This document shows, one piece after another, positions 4,248 through 32,336 of a stretch of 32,336 bases of DNA. The translations under genes were made by a program, and so were the position numbers. Within the stretch, counting starts at the first letter, position 1. Every line of letters begins with the position of its first letter. This DNA comes from an uncultured Muribaculaceae bacterium (GTDB lineage: Bacteria > Bacillota_I > Bacilli_A > RF39 > UBA660), in NCBI GenBank assembly GCA_964465245.1, contig CAYXHQ010000002.1, positions 1 to 32,336 of the forward strand, written 5' to 3'. The notes below the pieces were generated by a model. That model was not told where the DNA came from and did no database searches. It worked only from the letters and a program-made list of their open reading frames with translations.

Positions 4248-4703
4248 CTATCTTATATTTTCTTTATAATATTTTATATTATTTTCATCAAGAATACTAA
4301 CATCAACTATCTTTTTTTCAAGAGCATCTTCTAAAGTGTATTCTTCTATTCCTTTTATTACATAATAATCTTTTTGACAAGCAAAGTAATATTTATAATT
4401 TTCATCTGTATAGAAAAATTTTAAAGCTTCTCCACAATATTCAGTTCTATCAATTATTTTAATACTATTTTGACTTTCCATATTATTTTTATTATATATT
4501 AGTAAGAAAACAGTTATACCAATTAAACATCCGATGATTATAATTATATAAATAATATTTTTGTTTTCTATCTTAAAGTTTTTACCACTAGAACTCGTGA
4601 ATTTTTCTTCAGGCGAAAGCACAGATTTATCATTTATTATTTCTAATTTTGATCCATTTTCTTGATTAACATTATTAGTTTGATTCAAATTTTTATCATC
4701 CAT
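4248..4703 (-). CDS. hypothetical membrane-anchored protein
   Basis: 151-aa ORF with a polar N-terminus, one TM helix (IIYIIIIIGCLIGITVFLLIY) and a C-terminal globular part. AAGGGAG lies 8 nt upstream of the ATG. Confidence 0.55.
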   Translation of the reverse strand: MDDKNLNQTNNVNQENGSKLEIINDKSVLSPEEKFTSSSGKNFKIENKNIIYIIIIIGCLIGITVFLLIYNKNNMESQNSIKIIDRTEYCGEALKFFYTDENYKYYFACQKDYYVIKGIEEYTLEDALEKKIVDVSILDENNIKYYKENIR

Positions 4704-10469: not shown

Positions 10470-10498
10470 AAAACATTTTGATTTTTTCAAAGTGTTTT
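10470..10498. terminator. bidirectional rho-independent terminator (rpsD and the convergent 185-aa gene)
   Basis: 12-bp stem AAAACATTTTGA (10470-10481) / TCAAAGTGTTTT (10487-10498) with one G-U pair on the plus strand and a TTTTT loop. T-rich tracts follow on both strands. Confidence 0.7.
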
Positions 10499-11055
10499 TA
10501 TTTTATTTTAAAAGTATTAAGCAGTTGTTTGATAGAACTAGCATACCCTTCTGTATATTCAAGTGGGTACTCTAATATTATTTCATATAAATCTTTATTA
10601 CTTGTTATAAAAAAATATTCTTTAATATTTTCTTCTACTTCTATAATGTATTTACTGTTATAATTATTTAATTTAATATCTTCAAAGTCTTCTATATTTT
10701 TTATATCATTAATACTTTTATCTTTATGATATTTTACTTTTAATTCAAAGTCATTTATTTTAAATTTTTCAGTTTCCCCTTCTTTTGTGTATTCAAAATC
10801 AGCAGGATAATTTAAATAGTAACCTAAACTACTATTTATTAAATTGGTCTTCACTATTTCAGTATTTCCTTCTAATTCTACTTCTTTGTCTTCACCTTCA
10901 GTTACTATACTGTTTTTTTCATCATTTTCTAGTATATTTATATCATTAGTTATATCAAATAACCTAATAGTATTAGTACTAAATAAGTATTGACCCAATA
11001 TAAAACCTATAAATATAAGTAGAATTGTTTTTAAAATACAACTAAATAATTTCAT
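10498..11055 (-). CDS. hypothetical membrane-anchored/secreted protein
   Basis: 185-aa ORF with an N-terminal hydrophobic anchor (ILKTILLIFIGFILGQYLF) and an acidic extracytoplasmic domain. AGGAGAG lies upstream of the ATG. Confidence 0.55.
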   Translation of the reverse strand: MKLFSCILKTILLIFIGFILGQYLFSTNTIRLFDITNDINILENDEKNSIVTEGEDKEVELEGNTEIVKTNLINSSLGYYLNYPADFEYTKEGETEKFKINDFELKVKYHKDKSINDIKNIEDFEDIKLNNYNSKYIIEVEENIKEYFFITSNKDLYEIILEYPLEYTEGYASSIKQLLNTFKIK

Positions 11056-11102: not shown

Positions 11103-11131
11103 AACAAAATAAAACGAGTTTAAACTCGTTT
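11103..11131 (-). terminator. rho-independent terminator after ftsZ
   Basis: On the minus strand: AAACGAG-TTTAAA-CTCGTTT followed by TATTTTGTT. Confidence 0.65.
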
Positions 11132-11192: not shown

Positions 11193-12234
11193 TTATATGT
11201 CTCTGTTTCTTAAAAATACTGGGATGTCTATGTCTTCATCTAGTTCTTCTATTTTAGTTATTCTTTCTTTTGTTTTAGTGGCACTATTATTTTCATATTG
11301 ATATAATGGATCGCTTTCTTCTTCAAATCCTGTGGCAATTACTGTAACTATTACTTCATCAGTAAGTGCTTCATTGATAACTGCACCAAAGATAATATTT
11401 ACATCTGTATTAGATGCAGCTCTTACTACTTCTGCAGCATCTTCTGCTTCAAATAATGTAAGAGATTTTCCGCCTGTTATATTAATGATACAGTCTGTTG
11501 CTCCATTTATTGTAGTTTCAAGAAGTGGACTAGTAACTGCTTGTTTTGCAGCTTGCATAGCTCTATCTTCTCCAAATCCTACACCTATTCCAATAAGTGC
11601 AGTTCCTCTTGCTTCCATTATTGCTTTAACATCAGCAAAATCTAGGTTTACAAGCCCTGGCACACTTATTAAGTCTGAGATTGATTGAACACCAAGTCTT
11701 AAAACATTATCTACTTCTCTAAATGCATCTACCATAGGAGTTGATTTATCAATTAAATCTCTTAATCTATCATTTGGAATTACCACTAAAGTATCTACAT
11801 GCTTTTTAAGTTCATCTAGTCCATATAAAGCATTATCCATTCTCTTCTTACCTTCAAATTTGAAAGGTTTTGTTACTATTGCAACAGTTAAGGCACCAAG
11901 TTCTTGAGCCACCACCCATACCAGCGGCTACAAAAACCATGTCTGCTCCTCTTAATAGGTCTTCAATTTCACTTCTGCTTTCCATTGCTGCTTCACGACC
12001 TACTTCAGGGTCAGCTCCAGCTCCAAGTCCATCAGTAATAGTTTTACCTATTTGTAATTTAATTGGTGCTTTAGAACTATTTATAATTTGCAAATCTGTG
12101 TTTGCTACTATAAACTCTACTCCTTTTAAGCCATCGTCAATCATCCTGTTAACAGCATTACATCCTGCTCCACCTACTCCTATAACTTTAATTTTTGCTA
12201 TTTGGTCCATTTCTAAAGGGGTTCCACTATTCAT
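11193..12234 (-). pseudogene. ftsZ: cell division protein FtsZ, interrupted (out-of-frame internal deletion removing the GGGTGTG loop)
   Basis: The N-terminal part (ORF 11854-12243; likely ATG at 12232-12234, 8 nt after AAGGAG) reads ...[17 protein letters not shown]...[14 protein letters not shown] and then goes out of frame. The C-terminal part (ORF 11193-11915) resumes at [23 protein letters not shown]...NLDFADV...DIPVFLRNR. No frame encodes TGTGAAP. Confidence 0.85.
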
Positions 12235-12246
12235 ATCAATCACTCC

Positions 12247-13485
12247 TTAATTATCGAAAAAGTAACTAAATACTTTCCCGAGTATTGTATTATTTGTATT
12301 TTTCTTTTTACTATTAAATATTTCTTCAATATCTTCCGCACTCATTGTTGATGCTGTTTTTTTTCTAAACGCTAATTTTCTGTGATAATATTTAATGAGT
12401 CCTAGAGCACTACTATATTTATTTGATCTAACACCAAGTTCGCTTACATCTCCTAAAATTGCTGATTTACCTAAAACTTCTTCAACAACTTCTGATGCAT
12501 CATCTATATCTGTAGTACCTCCTGTAACTATTATATAACTATTTTCCTTCTTTGTTAAGAGATTTATTTGTTTTTTTGATAACTCTAGTATTTCTTTTAA
12601 CTTTGAGTAAACAATTTCACTTATTTCATACTGATTTATTTTGATTTTGATGCCATCTTTATTCTCTACTGTTTCAAGTTCAGTAGTACTTGTATTCTTT
12701 TTATGTGCGAATGCAAAGTTTTCTTTTAGATATATAGCAGTTTTCCTATTTACATTATAAGCATACATTATGTCTTTATCAATACTTATTCCACCAATAT
12801 CTAAAACTTCTACTGCAGTAAGTACACCTTTATTGATAATACTTACTTCTGTTTTTTCATCTCCTATATTAATAAGAGCACCCTGCGCTTCATTCATTTC
12901 ATCCAATTTATATTCATGATAATCAGCTAAAGCGTTAAAACAAATATCAGTAACACTTACTCCAATACTTTCTAATAATGTCACGAGTCCATAAATATTT
13001 TTCTTAGGTGTTAAAGATATTACATTTTTAACACTAAGCCTTGTAGCATTCATTCCCATTGGATTTGATACAGTTTCAGTTTCATTAATTATATATTCTA
13101 CTGGCATAATTGAAATTAATTCTTTGTTTGATGGAACTTTATTATAAACAGATGCTTGAAGAGCTCTTACGATATCATCTCCATTTATTTTTCCACTTTC
13201 ACGAGTAATAGTGGTATATCCTTCACATAAATCAAATTCAGCATAATAAGCAGGAGCACATATAAGAACATTTTTTATCTTTATATCTATTATATCTTCA
13301 CATTTTTTAAATAATTCTTTTAATGATTCAACTGCATCTTCAGGATTCACTATAAGCCCTTTTTTTACACCTTTAGACTTCACTTCAGAGCAAGCTAAAA
13401 CATTCAATCTTTTATTGTAGATTTCTCCAACAATCAATTTAAATGAACATGTTCCAATATCTAAACTTGTAATTATTTGTTTCAT
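12247..13485 (-). CDS. ftsA: cell division protein FtsA
   Basis: 412 aa counted from the ATG at 13483-13485 (AGGAAAG upstream): MKQIITSLDIGTCSFKLIVGE... has the actin-like ATPase fold (DIGT, GGTT). The stop overlaps the ftsZ SD. The 49-codon upstream extension in the track is rejected. Confidence 0.9.
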   Translation of the reverse strand: MKQIITSLDIGTCSFKLIVGEIYNKRLNVLACSEVKSKGVKKGLIVNPEDAVESLKELFKKCEDIIDIKIKNVLICAPAYYAEFDLCEGYTTITRESGKINGDDIVRALQASVYNKVPSNKELISIMPVEYIINETETVSNPMGMNATRLSVKNVISLTPKKNIYGLVTLLESIGVSVTDICFNALADYHEYKLDEMNEAQGALINIGDEKTEVSIINKGVLTAVEVLDIGGISIDKDIMYAYNVNRKTAIYLKENFAFAHKKNTSTTELETVENKDGIKIKINQYEISEIVYSKLKEILELSKKQINLLTKKENSYIIVTGGTTDIDDASEVVEEVLGKSAILGDVSELGVRSNKYSSALGLIKYYHRKLAFRKKTASTMSAEDIEEIFNSKKKNTNNTILGKVFSYFFDN

Positions 13486-13570: not shown

Positions 13571-16500
13571 TTAAATATTAAATACTTGTTTTTTTGATGC
13601 ATATAGGTATGCGAATATTGCAAATACAGCAAATCCTACAATTATAAAAATGTTATTATTTATTCCAGTTTTAGGATTTACAACTTTATTATAAGTATAA
13701 ATTATTTTTCCTGTTTCTTCAGAATATTCTCCATGCCAGTTATCTGTTACATTTATTAGTTCATAATCATCAAATTCTTTTTCTTCAGTTGTATATTCAT
13801 CTCCAACATATCCAGGTTTTTCATCACTTTCTAAAATGTTACCATCTTCATCTTGATAAATTATTTCTATTTTTGCCGGAGTTTTTTCAGTATAATAGTA
13901 TATAATTGTTTGAGGACTTAATGTAAATGTACCTACTGCATTATCTGGAGTACTAACTAAAGTATAGTTTTCTATATTTACTCTACTTGTAGTATAAGGT
14001 TTTGTAACTTTACCTGTTAATATAACATCATCACTAATTTGAGTTGTAGTACCATTTAAATAATGATGTACTGTTACATTTCCACCGGGTTTTAATTCAT
14101 ATATATAGATTACTTCTTGTGATTCTTCAGTAAATGTACCAGTAGCGTTATCTGGAGTACTTACAAGTTCATAGTTATCAAAGTCTTTTTCTTCTGTAGT
14201 ATAAGGAGTTCCTTCTTTATCAACCAAGTCATCTCTATCAAGAACACTATCTTCCGTACTTTTATATATTACTGTTACATTTGCTGGGTCTTTTAATCTA
14301 TAGTAATATGTTACATTTTGTGTTTCTCTTGTAAATACACCAGATGAATTTGTAGGAGTTGATACCAAAACATAATCTGAACTAGTAACTGCCGAAGTTG
14401 TATAATTTTCTCCTAGTTTTCCAGTTAAGTTTTGATCTTCTGCACCCGTAGCATCAATGGTAGTAGTCGTACCTTCTAAATAATGATGTACTGTAACTAC
14501 TCCACCTTGCATTATAGTATAGATATATATAACATCTGTGTTTTCTGCTTTAAGAATGCCATTAGCATTTGTAGGAGTAGTTTTTAATATATATCCTTCT
14601 TCATCATAATCATTACTTGTTGTTGTATATGGATTTCCTATATATCCACTAACTTGTGCTGTATCTAAAATTTCTCCACTATCGAGTTTATGAACCACAT
14701 CTACTGAAGCTCTTTCACGAAGTCTATAGTAATATGTTACTTCTTGAATTACAGATGTATAAACTCCTGTTTTATTACTTGGATTGTTAACAAGTTCGTA
14801 CTTTTCTATGTTCATAGGCGAAGTTGTATATGGCATCGTAATTTTACCAGATAAAAGTTGGTCACTAGCGCCATCTATTGTAACAGTTGTTCCATCTAAA
14901 TAATGATGAACTATAATGTTTCCACCTGCGTTTAGAGTATATGTATAAATTACATCTGCATTTTCCGTTTTAAGAGTGCCATCTGCATTTGCTGGAGTTG
15001 TTAATAATGTAGTATTTGGAAAAGTTTTACTATCTGTTTCATATGCATCATCAACATACCCATCTATCTTATATGAATTTAAAATTTCGTCCGTATCAAC
15101 AAGCCTGTGTATTACATTTACACTAGCTGGAGTTCTAAGCCTATAATAATATGTTACTGTTTGAGGTTCTAATGTAAATGTGCCTGTAGCATTATTTGGA
15201 GTACTAACTAACTCATATTTATTTATATCAAATGGATTAGTAGTATAGTTCTCGGTATATTTACCAGTAAGTATTTGGGTTTCGCCCCCATCAATAGTTG
15301 TAGTAGTATTCTCTATATAATGATATACTGTTACATTACCACCAGGCTTTAACTCATAAATGTAGATTACATCTGGGTTAGTAGCAGCTAAAGTGCCATT
15401 TGCATTACTTGGAACTGTTTTAACTACATAATTGTCATATGTATTAGTAGATGTTGTATAAGGTCTTCCTACATAACCCGAGATAGTAGATGAATCTAAT
15501 ACTGTATTATTTTCAAGTTTATGTATTACATTTATACTCGTAGTTTCCCTTAATTTATAATAATACGTTACTACTTGTATATTTAAATCGAATGTTCCCG
15601 TTTTATTACTTGGATTATTTACTAGTTCATACTTTTCTATATCCATAGCAGACGTTGTATATGAAGTTGTTACAGGTCCTGTTAATATTTGATCTGTAGC
15701 GCCTTCAATAGAGGTAGTACTTCCTTCTAAATAATGATGCACTATTACATTGCCTGATTTTAATCTATATATATAATCAACTGTTACACCATCTTCGTCC
15801 ATAATACCAGTTGCATTGGTAGGAGTTTTTGTTAACTCATAATTATCAAAATTTGTAAATGATGTAGGAGCCGAAGTTGTATAAGATTCATCTACCAATT
15901 CTTCACTTATATCACTCGCTTTTAAAGTTTGATTATTTTCAGTTTTATAATTTACAGTTAACGTAGCTTTAATTGGATCTTTTGTCCATCTATATTCAAC
16001 GTTACTTGTAACATAACTAATTTCAGATATTCTTGCGTGTCCATAACCTGTAGTATAGTTTGTCGTTGGTGTTGGTATCACTGCAGAAGCACCAACATCT
16101 GTATTCCATGAATATCCTTCCCCATCTATCATTATAGATTCACTAAATACCTTTTCACTATAGTGTTCACTACAAGTTTTATCAGTTTTTGCGCTTGCTA
16201 CAGTGCATAAAGTTCCGGTTGAATCATTTCTAGCAGTTCTTGATGTAGAAGATGCAATTGCGATTGAGCCTTGATGACCACTTATATATGATGAACCACC
16301 ACCCGATGCAGTAGCTGCACCTCCGCCACCTCCATAATATCCACCTCCGCCACCATCTCCGGCGTGAATTAACCAAGAACCAGTTCCAGTACCACAATCA
16401 ACAGGCCCGCCCCAGTTTCCGCCTCCACCTATTCCAAATGTTCCAATTTCGCCAGATTCTGTAATATACCCACAATATACAAAACTTCCAGCTGACCCAC

Positions 16501-17578
16501 CAGCAATTTGACTTCCACCATTGCCAGCAGAAGTATTAGGGTGCGAATATCCAACAAGGCCTCCGGCAGATCCTTTATAATTAACTGAATTATATGTTGT
16601 AGTTCTTACCCCGCCTCCGCCTGCAACCATTATTCTAGAATTTAATCCTAAAGCATTATTCCATGCTACATTAGAACTTTCTATAGTAGTGCATCTTTTT
16701 GTTTCTGTATCATAAAAACATCTAACATCAGTTGCGCCGCCGCCCCCAGCTCCTGGAGCACTAATAACACAACTATCAGCAGATCTTCCACCTGACCCAC
16801 CACCATTCCATCCGCCTGCTCCACCTTTACAGTTTGATGTAGACCAACTATCTGGTTCTCCTTGTCCACCAACATAAAAATATAATAATTCACCTTGTTT
16901 TAAATCAGTTTTACCTTTAGTATATCCTCCTACTCCACTAGGACTATAGCCAAATGGTGCACCCGATGCTCCCCAAAGTTCTATAATATATTGTCCGTCT
17001 TTTGGTGCAGTAAAACCTTGATATGCTCCAGTATATCCATAATTAGTAGTATTGCCTATTACTTCTATTTCATCAGTGTATACTTTTACTTTAAAGTTTC
17101 CGCTGATATTTGTAAGTCTAATATCTTGAATTGCTGTTTCCGCATACAAAGATAATTTATAATATGTTTTTGTAGCACTTAAATTATCATTATCTATAAA
17201 AACTAAATCTGTATTAAGAACAGTTGAATTAACAATTTTTGAATCTACTAAAGTGAACGTAGAATTATCAGTTGATTTTTCAAGTTTTAAAATATAATTT
17301 CCTGCTTCCAAAACTTTTTCAATACCTGTAGGCCTAAAAGAAACTGCAATATAATATTGATAAGAATTATTACCTTTTAAAGACACATCAAAATTAATTG
17401 TAGAATATAAACTCTCATCATTGTAGTTTATAACAACATTATTATCATCGGTAGTAAAAGAATCTTCCACGTTATAAATAGCCCCTAGTGTTTTATTAAT
17501 TAAAAATGGTAAACATGATATAATTACGATTGCTATTGCTGCGATTAGAATTATTTTTTTATTTTTTATTTTTTTCAT
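13571..17578 (-). CDS. cell-wall-anchored surface adhesin: signal anchor, ALK/LTK-type glycine-rich domain, 11 MucBP-like repeats, NPKTG sorting signal
   Basis: 1335-aa ORF. N-terminal signal/anchor MKKIKNKKIILIAAIAIVIISCLPF. Glycine-rich domain block YGYTGAYQGFTAPKDGQYIIELWGASGA...GGGGATDVR...VAGGGG...GGGGGYYGGGGG. Repeats carry the MucBP-type consensus (V.V.Y...G......LTG..G..YTT....Y.LV..P.NATGTFT...Q.V.Y.Y). C-terminus is NPKTG, a hydrophobic helix, then KK. Confidence 0.85.
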   Translation of the reverse strand: MKKIKNKKIILIAAIAIVIISCLPFLINKTLGAIYNVEDSFTTDDNNVVINYNDESLYSTINFDVSLKGNNSYQYYIAVSFRPTGIEKVLEAGNYILKLEKSTDNSTFTLVDSKIVNSTVLNTDLVFIDNDNLSATKTYYKLSLYAETAIQDIRLTNISGNFKVKVYTDEIEVIGNTTNYGYTGAYQGFTAPKDGQYIIELWGASGAPFGYSPSGVGGYTKGKTDLKQGELLYFYVGGQGEPDSWSTSNCKGGAGGWNGGGSGGRSADSCVISAPGAGGGGATDVRCFYDTETKRCTTIESSNVAWNNALGLNSRIMVAGGGGVRTTTYNSVNYKGSAGGLVGYSHPNTSAGNGGSQIAGGSAGSFVYCGYITESGEIGTFGIGGGGNWGGPVDCGTGTGSWLIHAGDGGGGGYYGGGGGAATASGGGSSYISGHQGSIAIASSTSRTARNDSTGTLCTVASAKTDKTCSEHYSEKVFSESIMIDGEGYSWNTDVGASAVIPTPTTNYTTGYGHARISEISYVTSNVEYRWTKDPIKATLTVNYKTENNQTLKASDISEELVDESYTTSAPTSFTNFDNYELTKTPTNATGIMDEDGVTVDYIYRLKSGNVIVHHYLEGSTTSIEGATDQILTGPVTTSYTTSAMDIEKYELVNNPSNKTGTFDLNIQVVTYYYKLRETTSINVIHKLENNTVLDSSTISGYVGRPYTTSTNTYDNYVVKTVPSNANGTLAATNPDVIYIYELKPGGNVTVYHYIENTTTTIDGGETQILTGKYTENYTTNPFDINKYELVSTPNNATGTFTLEPQTVTYYYRLRTPASVNVIHRLVDTDEILNSYKIDGYVDDAYETDSKTFPNTTLLTTPANADGTLKTENADVIYTYTLNAGGNIIVHHYLDGTTVTIDGASDQLLSGKITMPYTTSPMNIEKYELVNNPSNKTGVYTSVIQEVTYYYRLRERASVDVVHKLDSGEILDTAQVSGYIGNPYTTTSNDYDEEGYILKTTPTNANGILKAENTDVIYIYTIMQGGVVTVHHYLEGTTTTIDATGAEDQNLTGKLGENYTTSAVTSSDYVLVSTPTNSSGVFTRETQNVTYYYRLKDPANVTVIYKSTEDSVLDRDDLVDKEGTPYTTEEKDFDNYELVSTPDNATGTFTEESQEVIYIYELKPGGNVTVHHYLNGTTTQISDDVILTGKVTKPYTTSRVNIENYTLVSTPDNAVGTFTLSPQTIIYYYTEKTPAKIEIIYQDEDGNILESDEKPGYVGDEYTTEEKEFDDYELINVTDNWHGEYSEETGKIIYTYNKVVNPKTGINNNIFIIVGFAVFAIFAYLYASKKQVFNI
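13574..13678 (-). other. sortase sorting signal (NPKTG, TM helix, basic tail)
   Basis: NPKTG is encoded at 13664-13678, followed by INNNIFIIVGFAVFAIFAYLYA and SKKQVFNI. Confidence 0.7.
13685..15967 (-). repeat. tandem array of 11 MucBP-like coding repeats (about 65-70 aa each), two alternating subtypes
   Basis: Subtype 1 (V.VHHYL.GTTT...LTGK..YTTS..KYELV..P.N.TG.FT..Q.VTYYYRL) alternates with subtype 2 (V.VIHKL....LD....GY.G.PYTT...Y....TP.NANG.L....DVIYIY.L..GG). The nucleotide copies are similar but clearly diverged. Confidence 0.8.
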
Positions 17579-17657: not shown

Positions 17658-17696
17658 ACAAATAAAAAGCAATAGTGATTAATCACACTAATGCTT
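17658..17696 (-). terminator. rho-independent terminator after gatB
   Basis: On the minus strand there is an imperfect hairpin AAGC-ATTAGTGTGATT-AATCAC-TATT-GCTT, which starts inside the gatB stop codon. It is followed by TTTTTATTT. Confidence 0.5.
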
Positions 17697-19116
17697 ATTT
17701 TTCCAATTCTTTTCTTAATATTTCAGATGCTATACTTGGATTTACTTTACCACCCGAAGACTTTAATACAAGCCCTACTAAAAAACCTAATATATTTGTT
17801 TTTCCACTTTTATATGTACTAACTGCATCTGGATTTTTATCTAACACTTCTTTTATTATATTAATGATTTCACCTTCATCACTAACTTGTTTCATATCAT
17901 ATTTTTCTATTAATTCTAAAGGTTCCTTTTTTTCTTCTAATATAAGGTCAAATATTTTTTTACCTTGTTCTGTAGAAATAGTTTTATCATTTATTAAATT
18001 TATTAAATTAGATAACATTTTTGGAGTCATATAAATATTACTAACTGTTACATTATTTTTATTTAAATATCCAACAAGTCTTGTAGTCATCCAATTTGAT
18101 ACTTCTTTAGGATTAACACCCATATTTACAACATTTTCAAAAAAGTCAGATAATTCTTTTTCTTTTAAAAGCGTTCTTGATTCTACTTCTGTTAAGTTAT
18201 AATCATTCATATATTTTTTTAATCTATCCATTGGCAAAACTGGTATTTCTTTTTTTAAACTGTCTATAAATTCCTTTGTTATTTTATATTCAGGTATATT
18301 AGGTTCTACATAATATTTGTAATCTATTGCTTCAGCTTTTTCTCTCATACTATATGTTTTTTTGTCAGCATCAGAGTATCTTCTTGTTTCTCTAAGAACA
18401 TAGTCCCCACTTTCAAGTAATTCAGTTTGTCTTTTTATTTCATAATTAATTGTTTCTCTTACGCTTGAAAATGAATTTATGTTTTTTACTTCTGCTCTTA
18501 CACCTAACTCAGTATCAGTTTCACGCATTAAAGACACATTTACATCACATCTTATTTGTCCTTTTGACTGATCTGCATCAGATATTCCTAAATATTTTAT
18601 AACACTCCTTAGAGTTTCTAAAAATTCTATTGCTTCTTCTGCATTATTAATACAAGGTTCTGTTACTACTTCAATTAGGGGAACACCAACTCTATTATAG
18701 TCAATTAATGAATAATCATTTTCATGGGTAAAAGATGCAGCATCTTCTTCCACATGGAGTTGATGAATCAATATTTCTTTATATTCTTTATTTAATAAAA
18801 TGTTTAAACTACCATTTTTTCCTAAAGGTTTAGTCATTTGAGTTATTTGAAATCCTTTTGGTAAATCTGGGTAATAATAATTTTTTCTATCAAATAATAA
18901 ACTATCAGATATAGTACAATTTAATGCACTAGCAAGCTTAATCGCATCTTTAATTCCTTCTTCATTTACTACAGGCATTGTACCTGGGTATGCTATATCT
19001 ATTTCTGATACATTTGTATTAGCAATAGCGGAATATATATTTGAAGAAGGTGAAAACATTTTACTTTTTGTATTAAGTTCAATATGTATTTCAAGTCCTA
19101 TAACTGCTTTAAACAT
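17695..19116 (-). CDS. gatB: Asp-tRNA(Asn)/Glu-tRNA(Gln) amidotransferase subunit B
   Basis: MFKAVIGLEIHIELNTKSKMF...DRKNYYYPDLPKGFQITQ... is canonical GatB, with a C-terminal GatB/YqeY domain. The ATG at 19114-19116 lies 2 nt after the gatA stop and is preceded by GAGGTG. Confidence 0.95.
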   Translation of the reverse strand: MFKAVIGLEIHIELNTKSKMFSPSSNIYSAIANTNVSEIDIAYPGTMPVVNEEGIKDAIKLASALNCTISDSLLFDRKNYYYPDLPKGFQITQMTKPLGKNGSLNILLNKEYKEILIHQLHVEEDAASFTHENDYSLIDYNRVGVPLIEVVTEPCINNAEEAIEFLETLRSVIKYLGISDADQSKGQIRCDVNVSLMRETDTELGVRAEVKNINSFSSVRETINYEIKRQTELLESGDYVLRETRRYSDADKKTYSMREKAEAIDYKYYVEPNIPEYKITKEFIDSLKKEIPVLPMDRLKKYMNDYNLTEVESRTLLKEKELSDFFENVVNMGVNPKEVSNWMTTRLVGYLNKNNVTVSNIYMTPKMLSNLINLINDKTISTEQGKKIFDLILEEKKEPLELIEKYDMKQVSDEGEIINIIKEVLDKNPDAVSTYKSGKTNILGFLVGLVLKSSGGKVNPSIASEILRKELEK

Positions 19117-20518
19117 GATATTCACCTCTTTTAAAATCAATTGCACTCTCTATTTTGTGGGCTAAATTAAGAGTTAGTCCGTCTTTAAATTGCCCACATG
19201 TAATATTTACACCTATTGGCATTTCGTTTACATACCCATTAGGAATAGTAATACTAGGATATCCTCCCAAATTTCCAATTACTAAGTGATTTTCAAGAAT
19301 TAAGTATTCATCACTTATTTTATTGCCACTATTTCCTTCTATTTTAGGGGCAATACCTCCACTTGCTGGTAAAATAAGACCATCATACTTATCAAATAAT
19401 TCATTAAATCTAGTTACTATAAGATTTCTTGCTCTTAGGGCATTTAAATATAGTTTTTCTTGATTTTCTCTTTTTAATATATAACTTCCTAATATAAATC
19501 TTCTTTTAATAAGTTCTGAGAACCCTTCAGTTCTAGAACGCATCATAATACTTTCATAATCTTGTCCATCGATTCTATTGCCAAAATGTATTCCAGTTAA
19601 GTTTGAGTTATTACTTGTTGCTTCAGCACAAGAAATTGAATAATATATTCCGACCATTGCATCTAATAATTTTTTATCAAAACTCTCTATACATACTTCG
19701 ATACCTAAACTTTTTACTTTGTCAAGGGTATTATAAAAACTAGAAATGCTTTCTTTTGTTTCTGGATTTGTAGTTTGTGCGTCCACTATTTCTTTTATAT
19801 AGAAAAGTTTTTTACCTTTTATATCATTGTTTATATTTTCATAATATGAAGAGTCACTTTCTTTAATTGACGTCATATCTTTTGGGTCATATCCTTTAAT
19901 CACGTCGGTTACTATTGCAGCGTCTTCTGCGTTATTTGTAAATATTCCAACATGATCAAGAGTTGATGCAAAAGGAAAAAGTCCATATCTACTGATACGC
20001 CCATATGTAGGTTTAAATCCTACTATCCCACCAAAACTTGCAGGCTTTCTAACTGAGTCTCCCGTATCACTTCCAATTGCAAAAGGAACAATGCCTGAAG
20101 TTACAGCCGCAGCACTACCAGCAGAAGAACCACCCATTATTCTTGACGTATCAAGTGGGTTTCTAACTATTCCTGTGTGTCCTGTAGTGCCTGTCCCACC
20201 CATTGCAAGTTCATCTAATACAGTTTTACCAATAAGCACCGCACCACTTAACTTTAATTTTTTATAAACAGTCGCATCATACACTGGAACATAAGATGCT
20301 AAAATATTAGAAGATGCTGTAGTAAGTATGCCACTTGTAGAAAAATTATCTTTTAGAGCATATGGCACACCATTTAATAGTGAATCAGATTCATTATGTT
20401 CACACTTTTCACAAATAGTTACAAATGCATTATAAGCATCCTGATATTTAAGTGCTTTTTCTTTAGCTTCTTTAAAAGAATCACTTATATCTTTATTTTT
20501 ATAATCTATTATATTCAT
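19109..20518 (-). CDS. gatA: Asp-tRNA(Asn)/Glu-tRNA(Gln) amidotransferase subunit A
   Basis: 469 aa with the amidase signature region GGSSAGSAAAVTSG...GSDTGDSVRKPASF. The start overlaps the gatC stop (TAATG). Confidence 0.95.
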   Translation of the reverse strand: MNIIDYKNKDISDSFKEAKEKALKYQDAYNAFVTICEKCEHNESDSLLNGVPYALKDNFSTSGILTTASSNILASYVPVYDATVYKKLKLSGAVLIGKTVLDELAMGGTGTTGHTGIVRNPLDTSRIMGGSSAGSAAAVTSGIVPFAIGSDTGDSVRKPASFGGIVGFKPTYGRISRYGLFPFASTLDHVGIFTNNAEDAAIVTDVIKGYDPKDMTSIKESDSSYYENINNDIKGKKLFYIKEIVDAQTTNPETKESISSFYNTLDKVKSLGIEVCIESFDKKLLDAMVGIYYSISCAEATSNNSNLTGIHFGNRIDGQDYESIMMRSRTEGFSELIKRRFILGSYILKRENQEKLYLNALRARNLIVTRFNELFDKYDGLILPASGGIAPKIEGNSGNKISDEYLILENHLVIGNLGGYPSITIPNGYVNEMPIGVNITCGQFKDGLTLNLAHKIESAIDFKRGEYHV

Positions 20519-20808
20519 TATGCCACCACCCTTGGAACACTTACTTTATCATCTTGAACTTTTGGAGCATTTATAAATATTTCTTCTTTTGTAAGTGAGT
20601 TAACACTTGTATCACTTCTTAACTCTACGTCATTTTTCTTATATGGAAAATACATTGGTTCAATGGTTTCAATACCATCTATTTCACCTATTTTATCCAT
20701 CCAATGCAAAAATGTTTCAAATTCATGCATAAGTGTTACATACTCTTCTTCTTTCATTTCAAACATTAAATTTTTTCCTAATTCTTTTAATTCATCCGTA
20801 CTTATCAT
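20518..20808 (-). CDS. gatC: Asp-tRNA(Asn)/Glu-tRNA(Gln) amidotransferase subunit C
   Basis: 96 aa from the ATG at 20806-20808 (MISTDELKELGKN...), the size and position expected for GatC. Its SD AGGTGG overlaps the ftsQ stop codon. Confidence 0.8.
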   Translation of the reverse strand: MISTDELKELGKNLMFEMKEEEYVTLMHEFETFLHWMDKIGEIDGIETIEPMYFPYKKNDVELRSDTSVNSLTKEEIFINAPKVQDDKVSVPRVVA

Positions 20809-20817
20809 TACTACCAC

Positions 20818-21504
20818 CTATTCTTTTATTTCAAAATAATTTCCACTATCTAAGTAAAGTATTCCAGCGTGTCCTTCTAATTTCTCTTTTATATCATCAT
20901 ATTTATTTAAATTTGTTATTTTTGATAATGTAATATATACCATATTTCCATCTGTCATATAAAGAATAAATCTTTCATTATCATATGAAGTAGATGAATA
21001 CTCTATTTCACTTATTTTAAATAGTATATTTTCTTTCACTTTTGAAAATTTGTCTATCAATTTTTTTTCTATCTCTTCTGGAACATAATTTATTAAAGTA
21101 GGAATACCACTTAATGAATTATTCGATTTTAAAACAGTTCCATCACTTAATATAAAACTATCATCACTTCTTTTTTTGTATAATATTTGTTTTTCATCTA
21201 TATTTATTTCTACAATATATCCAAATTTCTTGTTTATTTTACATGACTCAACTAATTCTAATTTTTTAATTTTTTTACATATTTTAGAAGAACTAGTACG
21301 AATAAAAGATGGATAATTATCTAAGTTAGATATCTCTATTATCTCTTCATCAGTTATATTATTAGTACCCATAACTACTATATTTCTTATAGGTTCTTTT
21401 AAAACATACATTATAATGTAAAAAAGAATATACAAAAAAAGCACAAATATTAAAAATTTTAACAAATTAAATTTTTTTCTTTTTACTTTTTTTGTTTCTC
21501 CCAT
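20818..21504 (-). CDS. ftsQ: cell division protein FtsQ/DivIB
   Basis: 228 aa with a basic N-terminus, a single TM helix (FLIFVLFLYILFYIIMYV), then a POTRA-like start (IRNIVVMGTNNITDEEIIEISNL). Located directly after murG. Confidence 0.75.
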   Translation of the reverse strand: MGETKKVKRKKFNLLKFLIFVLFLYILFYIIMYVLKEPIRNIVVMGTNNITDEEIIEISNLDNYPSFIRTSSSKICKKIKKLELVESCKINKKFGYIVEINIDEKQILYKKRSDDSFILSDGTVLKSNNSLSGIPTLINYVPEEIEKKLIDKFSKVKENILFKISEIEYSSTSYDNERFILYMTDGNMVYITLSKITNLNKYDDIKEKLEGHAGILYLDSGNYFEIKE

Positions 21505-21514
21505 ATTTTCTCCA

Positions 21515-22585
21515 TTACTTTGTTTTTATTATTTCGTTATATATTTTTGTACTTGATTCTGGTTTTTCCATAAATTCTATCTTTTTAACAATATCATCAT
21601 ATTCTTTTTTATTATCCAAAATACTTTTAATACTTGTAAGTAATAATTCAGGAGTTAAATCACTCTGTTCTATCATTATACTAACTCCTAAGTCTTTTAA
21701 ACTAAGTGCATTGTAATACTGATGGTTATTAGCAACATATGGACTAGGTATTAAGATTGAAGGAATATTTGTACCAATAATCTCACTAATAGTTGAAGCT
21801 CCTGCTCTAGATATTATCAAGTCAGCACTCTTCATAAGTCCTGGTAAATCTTCATAAAATGATATTATTTTTACACTTGATGGCACTTTTAAATTATTGC
21901 TAAGTGCATTATATTGTCTACGCCCTGTAATAAATAGAATTTCTTTATCACTCTCATTGAAATTTCTTAAAAAATCTAATAATTTTTCATTCATCGCAGT
22001 AGAGCCTTCACTACCCATTACTATTAGTATTAATTTCTTACTTTTGCTAAATCCAAGTTCTGTTTTATCGTGTTTTTTAATAAACTTTGCACGTTCTAAA
22101 CAAGGATTTCCTGTGTATACTGTTTTAGATTCTTTAAAATATTTTTTAGTTTCAGGAAAAGATATAAAAATTTTTTTAGAATATTTACTTAATAATTTAT
22201 TGGTTTTACCCGGAATTACGTTTTGTTCATGAATGTAAACAGGTATTTTTCTACTGCGGGACGCTAAAATGACAGGTAAAGTCACATACCCACCAAATGC
22301 TACTACTGCATCTGGTTTAAATTCATCTATTATCTTTTTTGATTCTCTAATTGCTTTACTTATGGAAAAAATATTTTTTGCATCTTTTACAATATTTTTC
22401 TTATATCCATGTATTTCTAAGCCTTTATAAGGAATATTCATACTGGGGACTATTTCACTTTCCATTCTGTCAGTAGTCCCAACATAAATAAATCTATTTC
22501 TAGGATCTTTCTTAATTGTTTCTATTAATGATAAGGCTGGAAATATATGACCACCAGTTCCACCTGCAGATATTAAAAATCTCAT
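21515..22585 (-). CDS. murG: UDP-N-acetylglucosamine--N-acetylmuramyl-(pentapeptide) pyrophosphoryl-undecaprenol N-acetylglucosamine transferase MurG
   Basis: MRFLISAGGTGGHIFPALSL... is the MurG N-terminal G-loop, and the C-terminal block is ISRAGASTISEI. 356 aa. Confidence 0.92.
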   Translation of the reverse strand: MRFLISAGGTGGHIFPALSLIETIKKDPRNRFIYVGTTDRMESEIVPSMNIPYKGLEIHGYKKNIVKDAKNIFSISKAIRESKKIIDEFKPDAVVAFGGYVTLPVILASRSRKIPVYIHEQNVIPGKTNKLLSKYSKKIFISFPETKKYFKESKTVYTGNPCLERAKFIKKHDKTELGFSKSKKLILIVMGSEGSTAMNEKLLDFLRNFNESDKEILFITGRRQYNALSNNLKVPSSVKIISFYEDLPGLMKSADLIISRAGASTISEIIGTNIPSILIPSPYVANNHQYYNALSLKDLGVSIMIEQSDLTPELLLTSIKSILDNKKEYDDIVKKIEFMEKPESSTKIYNEIIKTK

Positions 22586-22661: not shown

Positions 22662-24863
22662 TTAGTCAGTTTCTAGTAATGTCCTATATTTATAATATAC
22701 TTTCTTTTGGATGGATATATTTGTATCAGTTTCAAGTTCTGATAAAGGTTTACCCATTTTAGTTTCAAATTCACTAAGTGGCAAATACTCTTCAAGTTTT
22801 AATGAGTCCGCTGATAAATATGATGTTCTCATTCTTTTTAATACTTTTGTTCTTACTTCCCTAGTATCAGTAGAATCTATTTTTTCATCTCCATATTCAC
22901 TCCATGAACCCCATTTAGCAGAAGATGTATCAATTTTACATCCACTTGCAGGAGACGAGGCAGAATACGCTCCATCATTACACATTGTTTTTGTACTTGC
23001 GCTTGTTTTAAACCATTTGAATTTATAAATATCTGCGGAATATAGCGTTTGCATCTTACATGTAGAAGTTTCTGTGTTACCTGGACAACTTCCATTTGTC
23101 CAATTAGACCAATTATATTCCACTTTTGAAGTTTTAGTATAACTAGAAGCACCTAATTTATTTTTTTCTTCTTCGGTTAAATAAGCAGCTTCGTTTATAT
23201 TAGTAGTATATCCTCCATTTGATTTTAAATATCTTGTCTCTATATTTTGATTATAATTAGTACACGATCCTTCCGTACAACTTGTACATTCACTTCCACA
23301 ACTTGTAACAGTTTTTGTGCCTGTGGTAGTTGAATAAGTCTCTTTATACGGATAATTTGAAGGACATGACTCTGAACCACTTATAACATTGGGTGAATAT
23401 ACTTTAGTTGAAGAACCTGAAGTCACAGGTGTACAATTATAACCACTTATAGGTGAAGATAATCCATTTTGTTGATCATAATATTTATATCCATATGTAG
23501 AAGTAGTACCTGATGAAGTATATGAAGCACTGCAATTTGAAATTGTTCCATAGCCACCAATTATAAGATTACAACTACTTCCACTAGACCAACAAGCTGT
23601 ATAGTTTGTTCCGTTATATGAGCATCTTCTTGTACTAGGCGATCCATTTAACATACAGTTTTGAACACTTACTTGATTGCTGCCTCCATATGAACCTCTA
23701 CAAGTTGAATTAGTATAAAGAGTTGGCAACGTACATCCTCTTACAGCACAAGAATATGTAATACCACTAGTTGATTTCCAATTAAAGGAAAGTGAATAAA
23801 CATATGGCCCAGATTCACTAGATTCCGTACAAGAATAAGCAGCGCAATTTAAATATCCAGCATTACTGCAAGCATTTAAGGCATCTGAAGAACTATTATA
23901 GTAACATCCTGATGAACTTTGTGTATTACTTGTGCAATTATATGTTGTTGTTCCACTTTGCAAATAGTAACATCTATATGTAGGAACTGAATAATTACAA
24001 GTATAATTTCTTGAAGCACAACTACCATTAGAAGTAACAGTCCTTGAATATATATATTTAGGTGTTGCTGTTCTATATTGAGTAGATGTTTTTAATTCAT
24101 ATTCACGTCCTGAAGTCTGCGAAGTTATGTCACTCCTATTTACACTTGGACCTATTGTCCTTGCTAAAGTTTTTGTTTCTGTTTCTTTTTCATATCCACT
24201 TGCAGGTCTTGTTTCATAATATGCGCCACCTCCATAATAAGAGGTTCCACCAGTTAACCTATACCATTTAAATGTTCCATCTCTATAACTATATTGAGTT
24301 TTCTCTTCAGTTTCAGTATCAAGAACTTGTACTCCACTAGGCACTACAGGAGATGTCTTCGTATCGCTCTTTTCTACCCAATCAGTCCATTCTGTATATT
24401 TAGCTGCTGCATCACTATAATTATAAAATAAACTTAATTCAACTTGTGTATTACCTTTAGATGTATCAGGGGCTGTTGGAGAATATTCACTCCAAGAAGA
24501 ATACAAATCTGATGATGTACATGCACCACAATTTATATCATGAGAATAATAATATTTTGTTCCACTTTTTCCAACATAAGCATTACCTGTACAACTAGTT
24601 CCTACTTCAGATAAATCTTTAGATGTTAAAACACGCTCATCTATTAAAGTCTGAACAGTTTCACTCTTCATTACTCCATCTTCAATAGGTAATTTATCTT
24701 GAAAATAATCTTGTGCTCTTACTTTTAATATTTCATTTAATCTTTCACATTCGCTGTTTCCTTCCACTATTGGTTTTTCTCCATTGGTACAAGATTTAGT
24801 AAAAAACAAGATTATAAAAGTAAATACTCCTAAAGTTATTAATATTTTTACAGTTTTACTCAT
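22662..24863 (-). CDS. secreted/membrane-anchored Cys-, Ser-, Thr-, Tyr-rich protein of unknown function
   Basis: 733 aa from the ATG at 24861-24863 (7 nt after GGAGG). N-terminal hydrophobic anchor KILITLGVFTFIILFF. 31 Cys, 22 of them within a roughly 250-aa S/T/Y/G/N-rich core. No family recognised. Confidence 0.7.
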   Translation of the reverse strand: MSKTVKILITLGVFTFIILFFTKSCTNGEKPIVEGNSECERLNEILKVRAQDYFQDKLPIEDGVMKSETVQTLIDERVLTSKDLSEVGTSCTGNAYVGKSGTKYYYSHDINCGACTSSDLYSSWSEYSPTAPDTSKGNTQVELSLFYNYSDAAAKYTEWTDWVEKSDTKTSPVVPSGVQVLDTETEEKTQYSYRDGTFKWYRLTGGTSYYGGGAYYETRPASGYEKETETKTLARTIGPSVNRSDITSQTSGREYELKTSTQYRTATPKYIYSRTVTSNGSCASRNYTCNYSVPTYRCYYLQSGTTTYNCTSNTQSSSGCYYNSSSDALNACSNAGYLNCAAYSCTESSESGPYVYSLSFNWKSTSGITYSCAVRGCTLPTLYTNSTCRGSYGGSNQVSVQNCMLNGSPSTRRCSYNGTNYTACWSSGSSCNLIIGGYGTISNCSASYTSSGTTSTYGYKYYDQQNGLSSPISGYNCTPVTSGSSTKVYSPNVISGSESCPSNYPYKETYSTTTGTKTVTSCGSECTSCTEGSCTNYNQNIETRYLKSNGGYTTNINEAAYLTEEEKNKLGASSYTKTSKVEYNWSNWTNGSCPGNTETSTCKMQTLYSADIYKFKWFKTSASTKTMCNDGAYSASSPASGCKIDTSSAKWGSWSEYGDEKIDSTDTREVRTKVLKRMRTSYLSADSLKLEEYLPLSEFETKMGKPLSELETDTNISIQKKVYYKYRTLLETD

Positions 24864-24953
24864 ATGCACGTCCTCCATCTATTTTATATAAACATTATAC
24901 TATATGTATCTTTTATTTTCTATCTATTTTTATTATTTTCTTATAAAAAGAAA

Positions 24954-31749: not shown

Positions 31750-32336
31750 CTACTTTTCTTCTTCTAATTGTGGTAATTCTTTTTTCTCTTCTTTCTTTTC
31801 AAAATAATGTTTTCTTACCTTTGCATCTATTTCTTCAAACATTTTAGGATTATTTTTAAGTACAAGTTTTGTATTTTCTTTTCCTTGCCCTATTTTTTCT
31901 CCTTTGTATGAATACCATGCTCCACTTTTATCAATTACATCAATATTAGCAGCTAAATCAACTAGTTCTCCTTCTTTAGATACACCTTCACCATACATTA
32001 TTTCCACTTCAGCCGTTTTAAATGGTGGAGCTACTTTATTTTTAACAACTTTTACTACAGTTCTATTTCCTATAATATCAGTTCCCATTTTAATTTGTTC
32101 TGCACGCCTTACATCAAGTCTAACTGTTGAATAATATTTAAGTGCTCTTCCACCTGGTGTTGTCTCAGGATTGCCAAACATAACTCCAACTTTTTCTCTT
32201 AACTGATTAATAAATATACATATTGTATTCGTTTTACTTACTACACCGCTTAGTTTTCTAAGTGCTTGTGACATTAATCTTGCTTGTAATCCAACATGAG
32301 AATCCCCCATCTCCCCTTCAATTTCTGCTTGAGGAA
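31750..32336 (-). CDS. recA: recombinase RecA (C-terminal part; 5' end outside the window)
   Basis: The frame is open to the window edge: ...[77 protein letters not shown] is canonical RecA. Confidence 0.95.

Follow-up and report, generated by a model that had tools for sequence, protein, structure and literature searches.

The stretch analysed here (the window) is a whole metagenome contig of 32,336 nt, recorded from NCBI only, whose host lineage consists of uncultured, AT-rich (28% GC) gut Bacilli that carry the name 'Tenericutes' in some records. Read along the minus strand, it encodes a 738-aa ORF, murG, ftsQ/divIB, gatC, gatA, gatB, a 1335-aa MucBP surface protein, ftsA, ftsZ and a 185-aa ORF, next to which rpsD follows on the opposite strand. 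ftsQ/divIB and murG mark a peptidoglycan-based division apparatus, and the adjacency of ftsA and ftsZ recurs in the same order in relatives. The partner genes are intact (Table 1), with ftsA scoring 186.9 bits against TIGR01174 (cut-off, 175.85 bits) and aligning with its relatives across residues 1–412. ftsZ is the sole broken gene among the ~30 ORFs of the window: the other ~25 ORFs checked gave either near-full Pfam matches or no family, and no other split gene was found among them. The one exception is recA (31750–32310, minus strand), which matches profile positions 152–262 and RecA_C only, because the contig ends within it; this is no lesion.

Gene order around ftsA–ftsZ is fluid in this clade. 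In the window, gatC, gatA and gatB (17695–20817, minus strand) lie between ftsQ and ftsA; in one related locus (L113:1–1666) gatA and gatB are found directly upstream of ftsA, and two further relatives have the orders ftsQ, 124-aa ORF, ftsA (L081) and holA, ftsA (L082). The 1335-aa protein (13571–17578, minus strand), encoded between gatB and ftsA, contains 11 MucBP repeats and an ALK/LTK glycine-rich domain and is missing from the matching position in these three relatives; it is likely an adhesin inserted into the division/gat cluster. The 185-aa ORF between ftsZ and rpsD (10498–11055, minus strand) has neither a family match nor a relative in the JGI metagenomes, and rpsD directly follows ftsZ in related loci that are devoid of it; this ORF is a very lineage-restricted insertion. 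Directly upstream of murG, the 738-aa ORF (22662–24878, minus strand) matched no Pfam or NCBIfam entry. Counterparts of it are a 709-aa ORF at the same position in L081 (86% FtsZ identity), likewise without match, and a 733-aa ORF on a Logan contig of the same strain (L087), and we refer to it as an uncharacterised protein at a dcw-cluster position.

Table 1 Coordinates of ftsZ, its lesion and the accompanying division genes in the window
Feature	Position (nt)	Strand	Description
murG	21515–22585	minus	Intact; Pfam Glyco_transf_28 (1–139/139) and Glyco_tran_28_C
ftsQ/divIB	20818–21504	minus	Intact; Pfam POTRA_1 and FtsQ_DivIB_C
ftsA	12247–13485	minus	412 aa, ATG at 13485; intact, immediately upstream of ftsZ
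ftsZ Shine-Dalgarno sequence	12243–12248	minus	AAGGAG, read from sequence; overlaps the ftsA stop codon (12247–12249)
ftsZ N-terminal segment	11908–12234	minus	109 codons, ATG through third Gly codon of the T4 signature
Deletion junction	11909–11912	minus	Breakpoint ambiguous by 2–3 nt within GG/TG/G (repeated TGG)
Out-of-frame tail of the N-terminal frame	11854–11907	minus	17 codons; TGA stop at 11854–11856
ftsZ C-terminal segment	11193–11909	minus	Starts AQELGALTV, with GCT at 11909; stop codon at 11195–11193; assigned by Pfam, TIGR00065 and alignment
Terminator-like hairpin and T-run 3′ of ftsZ	11112–11131	minus	8-pair stem AAACGAGTTTAAACTCGTTT, then TATTTTGTTA

Mechanical ORF calling on the minus strand divides ftsZ into two frames, 11854–12243 and 11193–11915. 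That these represent the halves of one FtsZ, as proposed in the initial annotation, was borne out by Pfam, TIGR00065 and protein alignment. The GTG at 12243, with which the mechanical list opens the first frame, was discarded as start codon; the true start is the ATG at 12234, which aligns with the MNNTPLEMDQ of relatives and is spaced from the AAGGAG by 8 nt. The N-terminal segment gave a 100% tblastn match across residues 1–109 and ends in VAAGMGGG, with GGC (11910–11908) as its last in-frame codon. The bases of the tail that follows are, in the other frame, genuine ftsZ codons. The C-terminal segment is reached in the +1 frame relative to the N-terminal one, reading (V)(V) and then AQELGALTV, and comprises the remaining GTPase domain, the T7 loop NLDFAD, the FtsZ_C domain and the conserved C-terminal peptide. 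Both pieces have database entries (P0121, 126 aa; P0130, 239 aa), with this contig as the only source. Two antisense ORFs, of 126 and 118 aa, face ftsZ (11870–12250 and 11332–11688, plus strand); we interpret these as shadow ORFs, i.e. non-genes, opposite a gene under strong constraint.

Profile searches placed the break within the GTPase domain. Against the Pfam Tubulin/FtsZ domain (PF00091), the first ORF covered positions 1–122 of 190 and the second positions 134–189, and FtsZ_C (PF12327) is complete in the second (1–95/95). Such a profile alignment had been put forward in the initial annotation as a means of sizing the gap. In the sequence and its alignments with relatives, a complete T4 loop is not retained: of the signature GGGTG[ST]G, GGG alone is left. 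The NCBIfam model TIGR00065 was matched by the N-terminal part at profile positions 16–117 (144.1 bits) and by the C-terminal part at 127–345 (233.6 bits), so that neither ORF on its own reaches the equivalog cut-off of 295.2 bits; a conceptual join of both halves scored 367 bits, above the cut-off, and the intact relative P0001 scored 413 bits. Other hallmarks of the protein are in place, namely the T1 loop (GGGGxN-type), with one conservative private exchange of G to A, the T7 synergy loop (NxDxxD), and a C-terminal tail that aligns with those of relatives.

At the DNA level, alignment with six intact relatives (L081, L082, L085, L089, L001 and L002) resolved the lesion into a single gap of exactly 38 nt. 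The earlier estimate of 35–40 missing nucleotides was therefore accurate, and the lesion is, as had been stated, a multi-codon, out-of-frame deletion and not a 1-nt indel. Because 38 nt correspond to 12 codons plus 2 nt, the reading frame changes. In the protein, aligned to ten intact relatives, 12 residues are absent, the last being the [IV] that precedes AQELGALTV; they comprise TGTG, which belongs to the T4 loop, together with 8 residues after it, where the following helix starts. The claim that the GGGTGTG loop had been removed holds in part only: TGTG is gone, and the three glycine codons are still there. No frame at the junction or anywhere in the 32,336-nt window encodes TGTGAAP, extending what had been noted for the junction itself, and a translocated copy of the missing 38 nt, sought within the window, was not found.

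As deposited, the junction consists of GTAGCCGCTGGTATGGGTGG joined directly to TGGCTCAAGAACTTGGTGCC, and an intact allele would be expected to carry ACNGGNACNGGNGCNGCNCC between the window-specific flanks. The gap falls after GGTGG in the alignment with L081 and after GGTGGTG in that with L089. Relatives mostly have ATT or ATA as the codon ahead of AQ, with GTG in two loci and ATG in one. Provided that the ancestor had (G/A)TG at this position, the deletion would probably have taken place between (G)TGG direct repeats 38 nt apart.

As written, the gene is predicted to be unable to make functional FtsZ, because most of the protein is missing from the 126-aa product; the 238 codons that remain downstream lack a Shine-Dalgarno sequence of their own. 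The T4 loop is required for GTP binding, and even a joined product would lack the phosphate-binding TGTG part of this loop and is therefore predicted not to bind GTP. This bears on recoding, i.e. a programmed +1 frameshift or a translational bypass that would join both frames. The two frames do overlap, and a +1 shift after GGC would reach the frame of the C-terminal part, but 12–13 residues, from the T4 loop into the beginning of the next helix, would still be missing from the product, the coding information for them is nowhere on the contig, the join stays below the score of the intact relative (367 vs. 413 bits), and no relative uses such a mechanism. We put the probability of recoding close to nil and dropped this candidate for want of the coding information.

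Among database proteins, the nearest are intact FtsZs 355–357 aa in length, with 83–86% amino acid identity, and the related loci stem from metagenome-assembled genomes of uncultured gut 'Bacilli', 'Tenericutes' or 'CAG' bacteria, some of them recorded as 'Mycoplasma sp. CAG'. We recovered ftsZ sequence from 106 related loci. In the comparison with relatives that had been suggested as a check, all loci reading through the site proved to have an intact T4 loop with in-frame GGGTGTG; one related locus (L100), split by a scaffold join, is still disrupted there. A contig of the same species was found neither among GTDB representatives (best FtsZ identity, 78–80%) nor in the JGI metagenomes, where the best FtsA match had 69% identity. 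Database proteins of ~256 aa labelled as 'C-terminal' FtsZ were considered as parallel truncations and rejected, being N-truncated gene calls from an internal Met with intact T4 loops.

The two halves of ftsZ are not decaying, and purifying selection on them is as strong as in intact genes. dN/dS ratios (Nei–Gojobori, nearest relatives) amounted to 0.03–0.09 for the N-terminal and 0.09–0.11 for the C-terminal part, vs. 0.04–0.07 for pairs of intact genes. The window's ftsZ has six private substitutions at columns with at least 97% agreement among 119 relatives, all of them conservative (G>A, S>D, V>I, T>A, N>D, A>S), a number within the range of 3–16 counted for intact relatives that are comparably isolated. 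Extra stops or frameshifts, radical changes and raised dN/dS, by which an established pseudogene is recognised, are not seen; the lesion is single. Neither does the locus resemble that of an FtsZ-less lineage, in which partner division and wall genes are lost and sisters look alike, as murG, ftsQ and ftsA are intact. From the low dN/dS, the few private changes and the intact relatives, it therefore follows that the lesion has no evolutionary age and that the lineage needs FtsZ.

In light of these data, a genuine, fixed loss of FtsZ function—with the lineage dividing independently of FtsZ, akin to Mollicutes or L-forms, or relying on a second ftsZ elsewhere in the genome—appears very unlikely. 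The labels 'Tenericutes' and 'Mycoplasma sp. CAG' on related records would fit such a loss, and some Mollicutes have no ftsZ or tolerate its disruption, just as B. subtilis L-forms divide without it (PMC4164004). However, these precedents are wall-less and the window contig keeps murG, ftsQ/divIB and ftsA; there is no decay in either half, the Shine-Dalgarno sequence or the terminator; the closest relatives all possess an intact and highly constrained ftsZ; and a search of the 32-kb window did not find a second copy of the gene. That a walled gut Bacilli lineage is seen just after a true inactivation of the only ftsZ it has, with murG, ftsQ and ftsA retained, which would imply that such a cell divides independently of FtsZ, we consider extremely unlikely.

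An independent assembly offered a view of the same strain. Three neighbouring proteins are also present in the Logan assembly of run SRR8925823, and two Logan contigs of this run aligned to the window with 100% and 99.98% identity, i.e. belong to the same strain. The same-strain contigs are 1.4, 2.3 and 4.7 kb long and none crosses the junction, one stopping at position 11460 of the window and one starting at 20824. This fragmentation in the only run containing the strain suggests that the strain was sequenced at low coverage. Protein searches centred on the junction and the N-terminal half returned no 100%-identical fragment besides the window's own calls and no Logan protein fragment from either half, a look-up of the N-terminal half gave no entry, and a literature search on the run accession gave no match.

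Comparable lesions were encountered in other public metagenome contigs. In L100, an 'NN' scaffold join lies inside the T4 codons and the flanking sequence is duplicated (around nt 4560–4600). L112 (417–1332), a SPAdes contig at 1.8x coverage, has an 8-nt deletion inside the T4 codons, and in L111 (2335–3239) the T4 loop is lost to a 73-nt deletion, with a second deletion, of 78 nt, 345 nt downstream. L045 (1–20) breaks off at the contig end, 12 nt short of the AQ codons, in L113 2 nt are inserted at ftsZ codon 89, and further damaged ftsZ fragments break at codons 135–168; as the searches for damaged ftsZ were biased to N-terminal fragments of ~100–190 aa, we claim no hotspot for lesions from these cases. 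A JGI contig of 1099 nt (P0206) encodes a chimeric ORF in which an unrelated N-terminus leads into FtsZ at VAEIAQNLG, within a few codons of the window's 3′ breakpoint, and is probably another assembly chimera at this site.

As to what sets this site apart, we examined shared and repeated sequence. The T4-loop DNA did not qualify as a hotspot of k-mers shared between co-occurring species, by which the assembly graph would become tangled, sharing at k = 21, 27 and 31 being unremarkable there. Short direct repeats, on the other hand, reach their gene-wide peak at the T4 codons (60-nt windows, 82 dereplicated relatives), with values of 7.26 at k = 5 (mean, 3.39; sd, 1.17) and 2.74 at k = 6 (mean, 1.04; sd, 0.55). 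The repeat-rich stretch has the form GGT GGT GGN ACN GGN ACN GGN GCN GCN. Because short direct repeats are enriched there, the T4 site is prone to slippage or template switching, be it in the cell, during library PCR, or when reads are merged, corrected for errors or scaffolded.

The initial annotation had read the lesion as an artefact or a very recent event, and this reading gains support from the lack of relaxed constraint, the intact relatives and the analogous lesions in low-coverage contigs. Between the two, we favour a local assembly or library/sequencing artefact with a canonical ftsZ beneath it, which we deem the probable explanation; the lesion would then be absent from the living population. 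In such a scenario, the 38 nt between the short direct repeats (G)TGG...(G)TGG may be missing from the deposited contig owing to an error in the local consensus, made when short metagenome reads of low coverage were assembled: a join may have lacked support, or a read may have been chimeric or slipped. The error would fall where short direct repeats are densest in ftsZ. Only ftsZ is broken, all relatives that read through the site are intact, and low-coverage contigs elsewhere have analogous lesions. We prefer an artefact because a consensus null allele of an essential gene without other decay is most economically explained in this way.

A real deletion that is very recent, or confined to a minority of cells, and was captured as the consensus by virtue of low coverage is less probable in our view. 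It could have arisen by replication slippage or microhomology between the (G)TGG repeats, either in part of the cells or in the DNA of dead ones, with the lineage overall still dependent on intact ftsZ. For a De Bruijn assembler to emit a junction, its k-mers must normally occur in one read or more, and a microhomology of 3–4 nt alone cannot create a false graph edge; a molecule or a chimeric read with the junction may therefore have existed. Likewise, a real slippage deletion is accounted for equally well by the repeats of the T4 codons, where direct repeats are denser than anywhere else in ftsZ, and the combination of no secondary lesions and dN/dS values of 0.03–0.11 fits an event without evolutionary age. 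However, ftsZ is normally essential in walled bacteria, and a null allele is expected to kill a walled cell of the Firmicute type whose murG, ftsQ and ftsA are intact; a lethal allele should stay very rare and seldom become the consensus, and the T4 signature is kept by all related loci that read through the site.

Returning to the artefact as the preferred explanation, the contig would be an example of how essential genes enter public databases in broken form through isolated local errors, made where metagenomes are assembled at low coverage; this ftsZ shows up there as two 'proteins', one of 126 and one of 239 aa. Before ftsZ is scored as absent from the genome, flagging or re-checking of the contig is advisable. 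Curators may further make use of the observation that direct repeats are denser in the T4 codons than elsewhere in ftsZ and that several unrelated contigs are damaged there. Were the lesion real and fixed, it would represent a rare natural case of a walled bacterium without functional FtsZ and offer a view of the transition toward Mollicute-like division.

Compared with canonical FtsZ (TIGR00065; PF00091 plus PF12327), the window's gene has ftsA just upstream, the T1 loop, the T7 loop NLDFAD, a full FtsZ_C domain and the DIPVFLRNR peptide in common; it differs in the absence of 38 nt, by which TGTG and the next 8 residues are gone and the frame is broken. FtsZ-independent division is known from Mollicutes lacking ftsZ, an M. 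genitalium ftsZ knockout, B. subtilis L-forms and Chlamydiae, the latter of which keep peptidoglycan and have no ftsZ gene at all (PMC4164004). The window's lineage shares with these a Firmicute derivation, a small, AT-rich genome and an ftsZ that is predicted to be non-functional as written. Unlike the window, with its intact murG, ftsQ and ftsA, the Mollicute and L-form precedents are devoid of a peptidoglycan wall and of most dcw genes, and in contrast to Chlamydiae, which have no ftsZ gene, the window has one that shows no decay besides one deletion. Local assembly errors that lead to incorrect protein-coding sequences in public databases have been described (Chen et al. 2020, Genome Res 30:315; PMC7111523), among them the error type 'Ns inserted despite overlap'. 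Such errors are defined by the criterion that no read perfectly supports the consensus. The window resembles them in its single, isolated, non-biological-looking lesion in an essential and otherwise perfectly conserved gene from a low-abundance population, and the sibling cases in other public contigs comprise one of the described type 'Ns inserted despite overlap' (L100) and a multi-deletion gene (L111).
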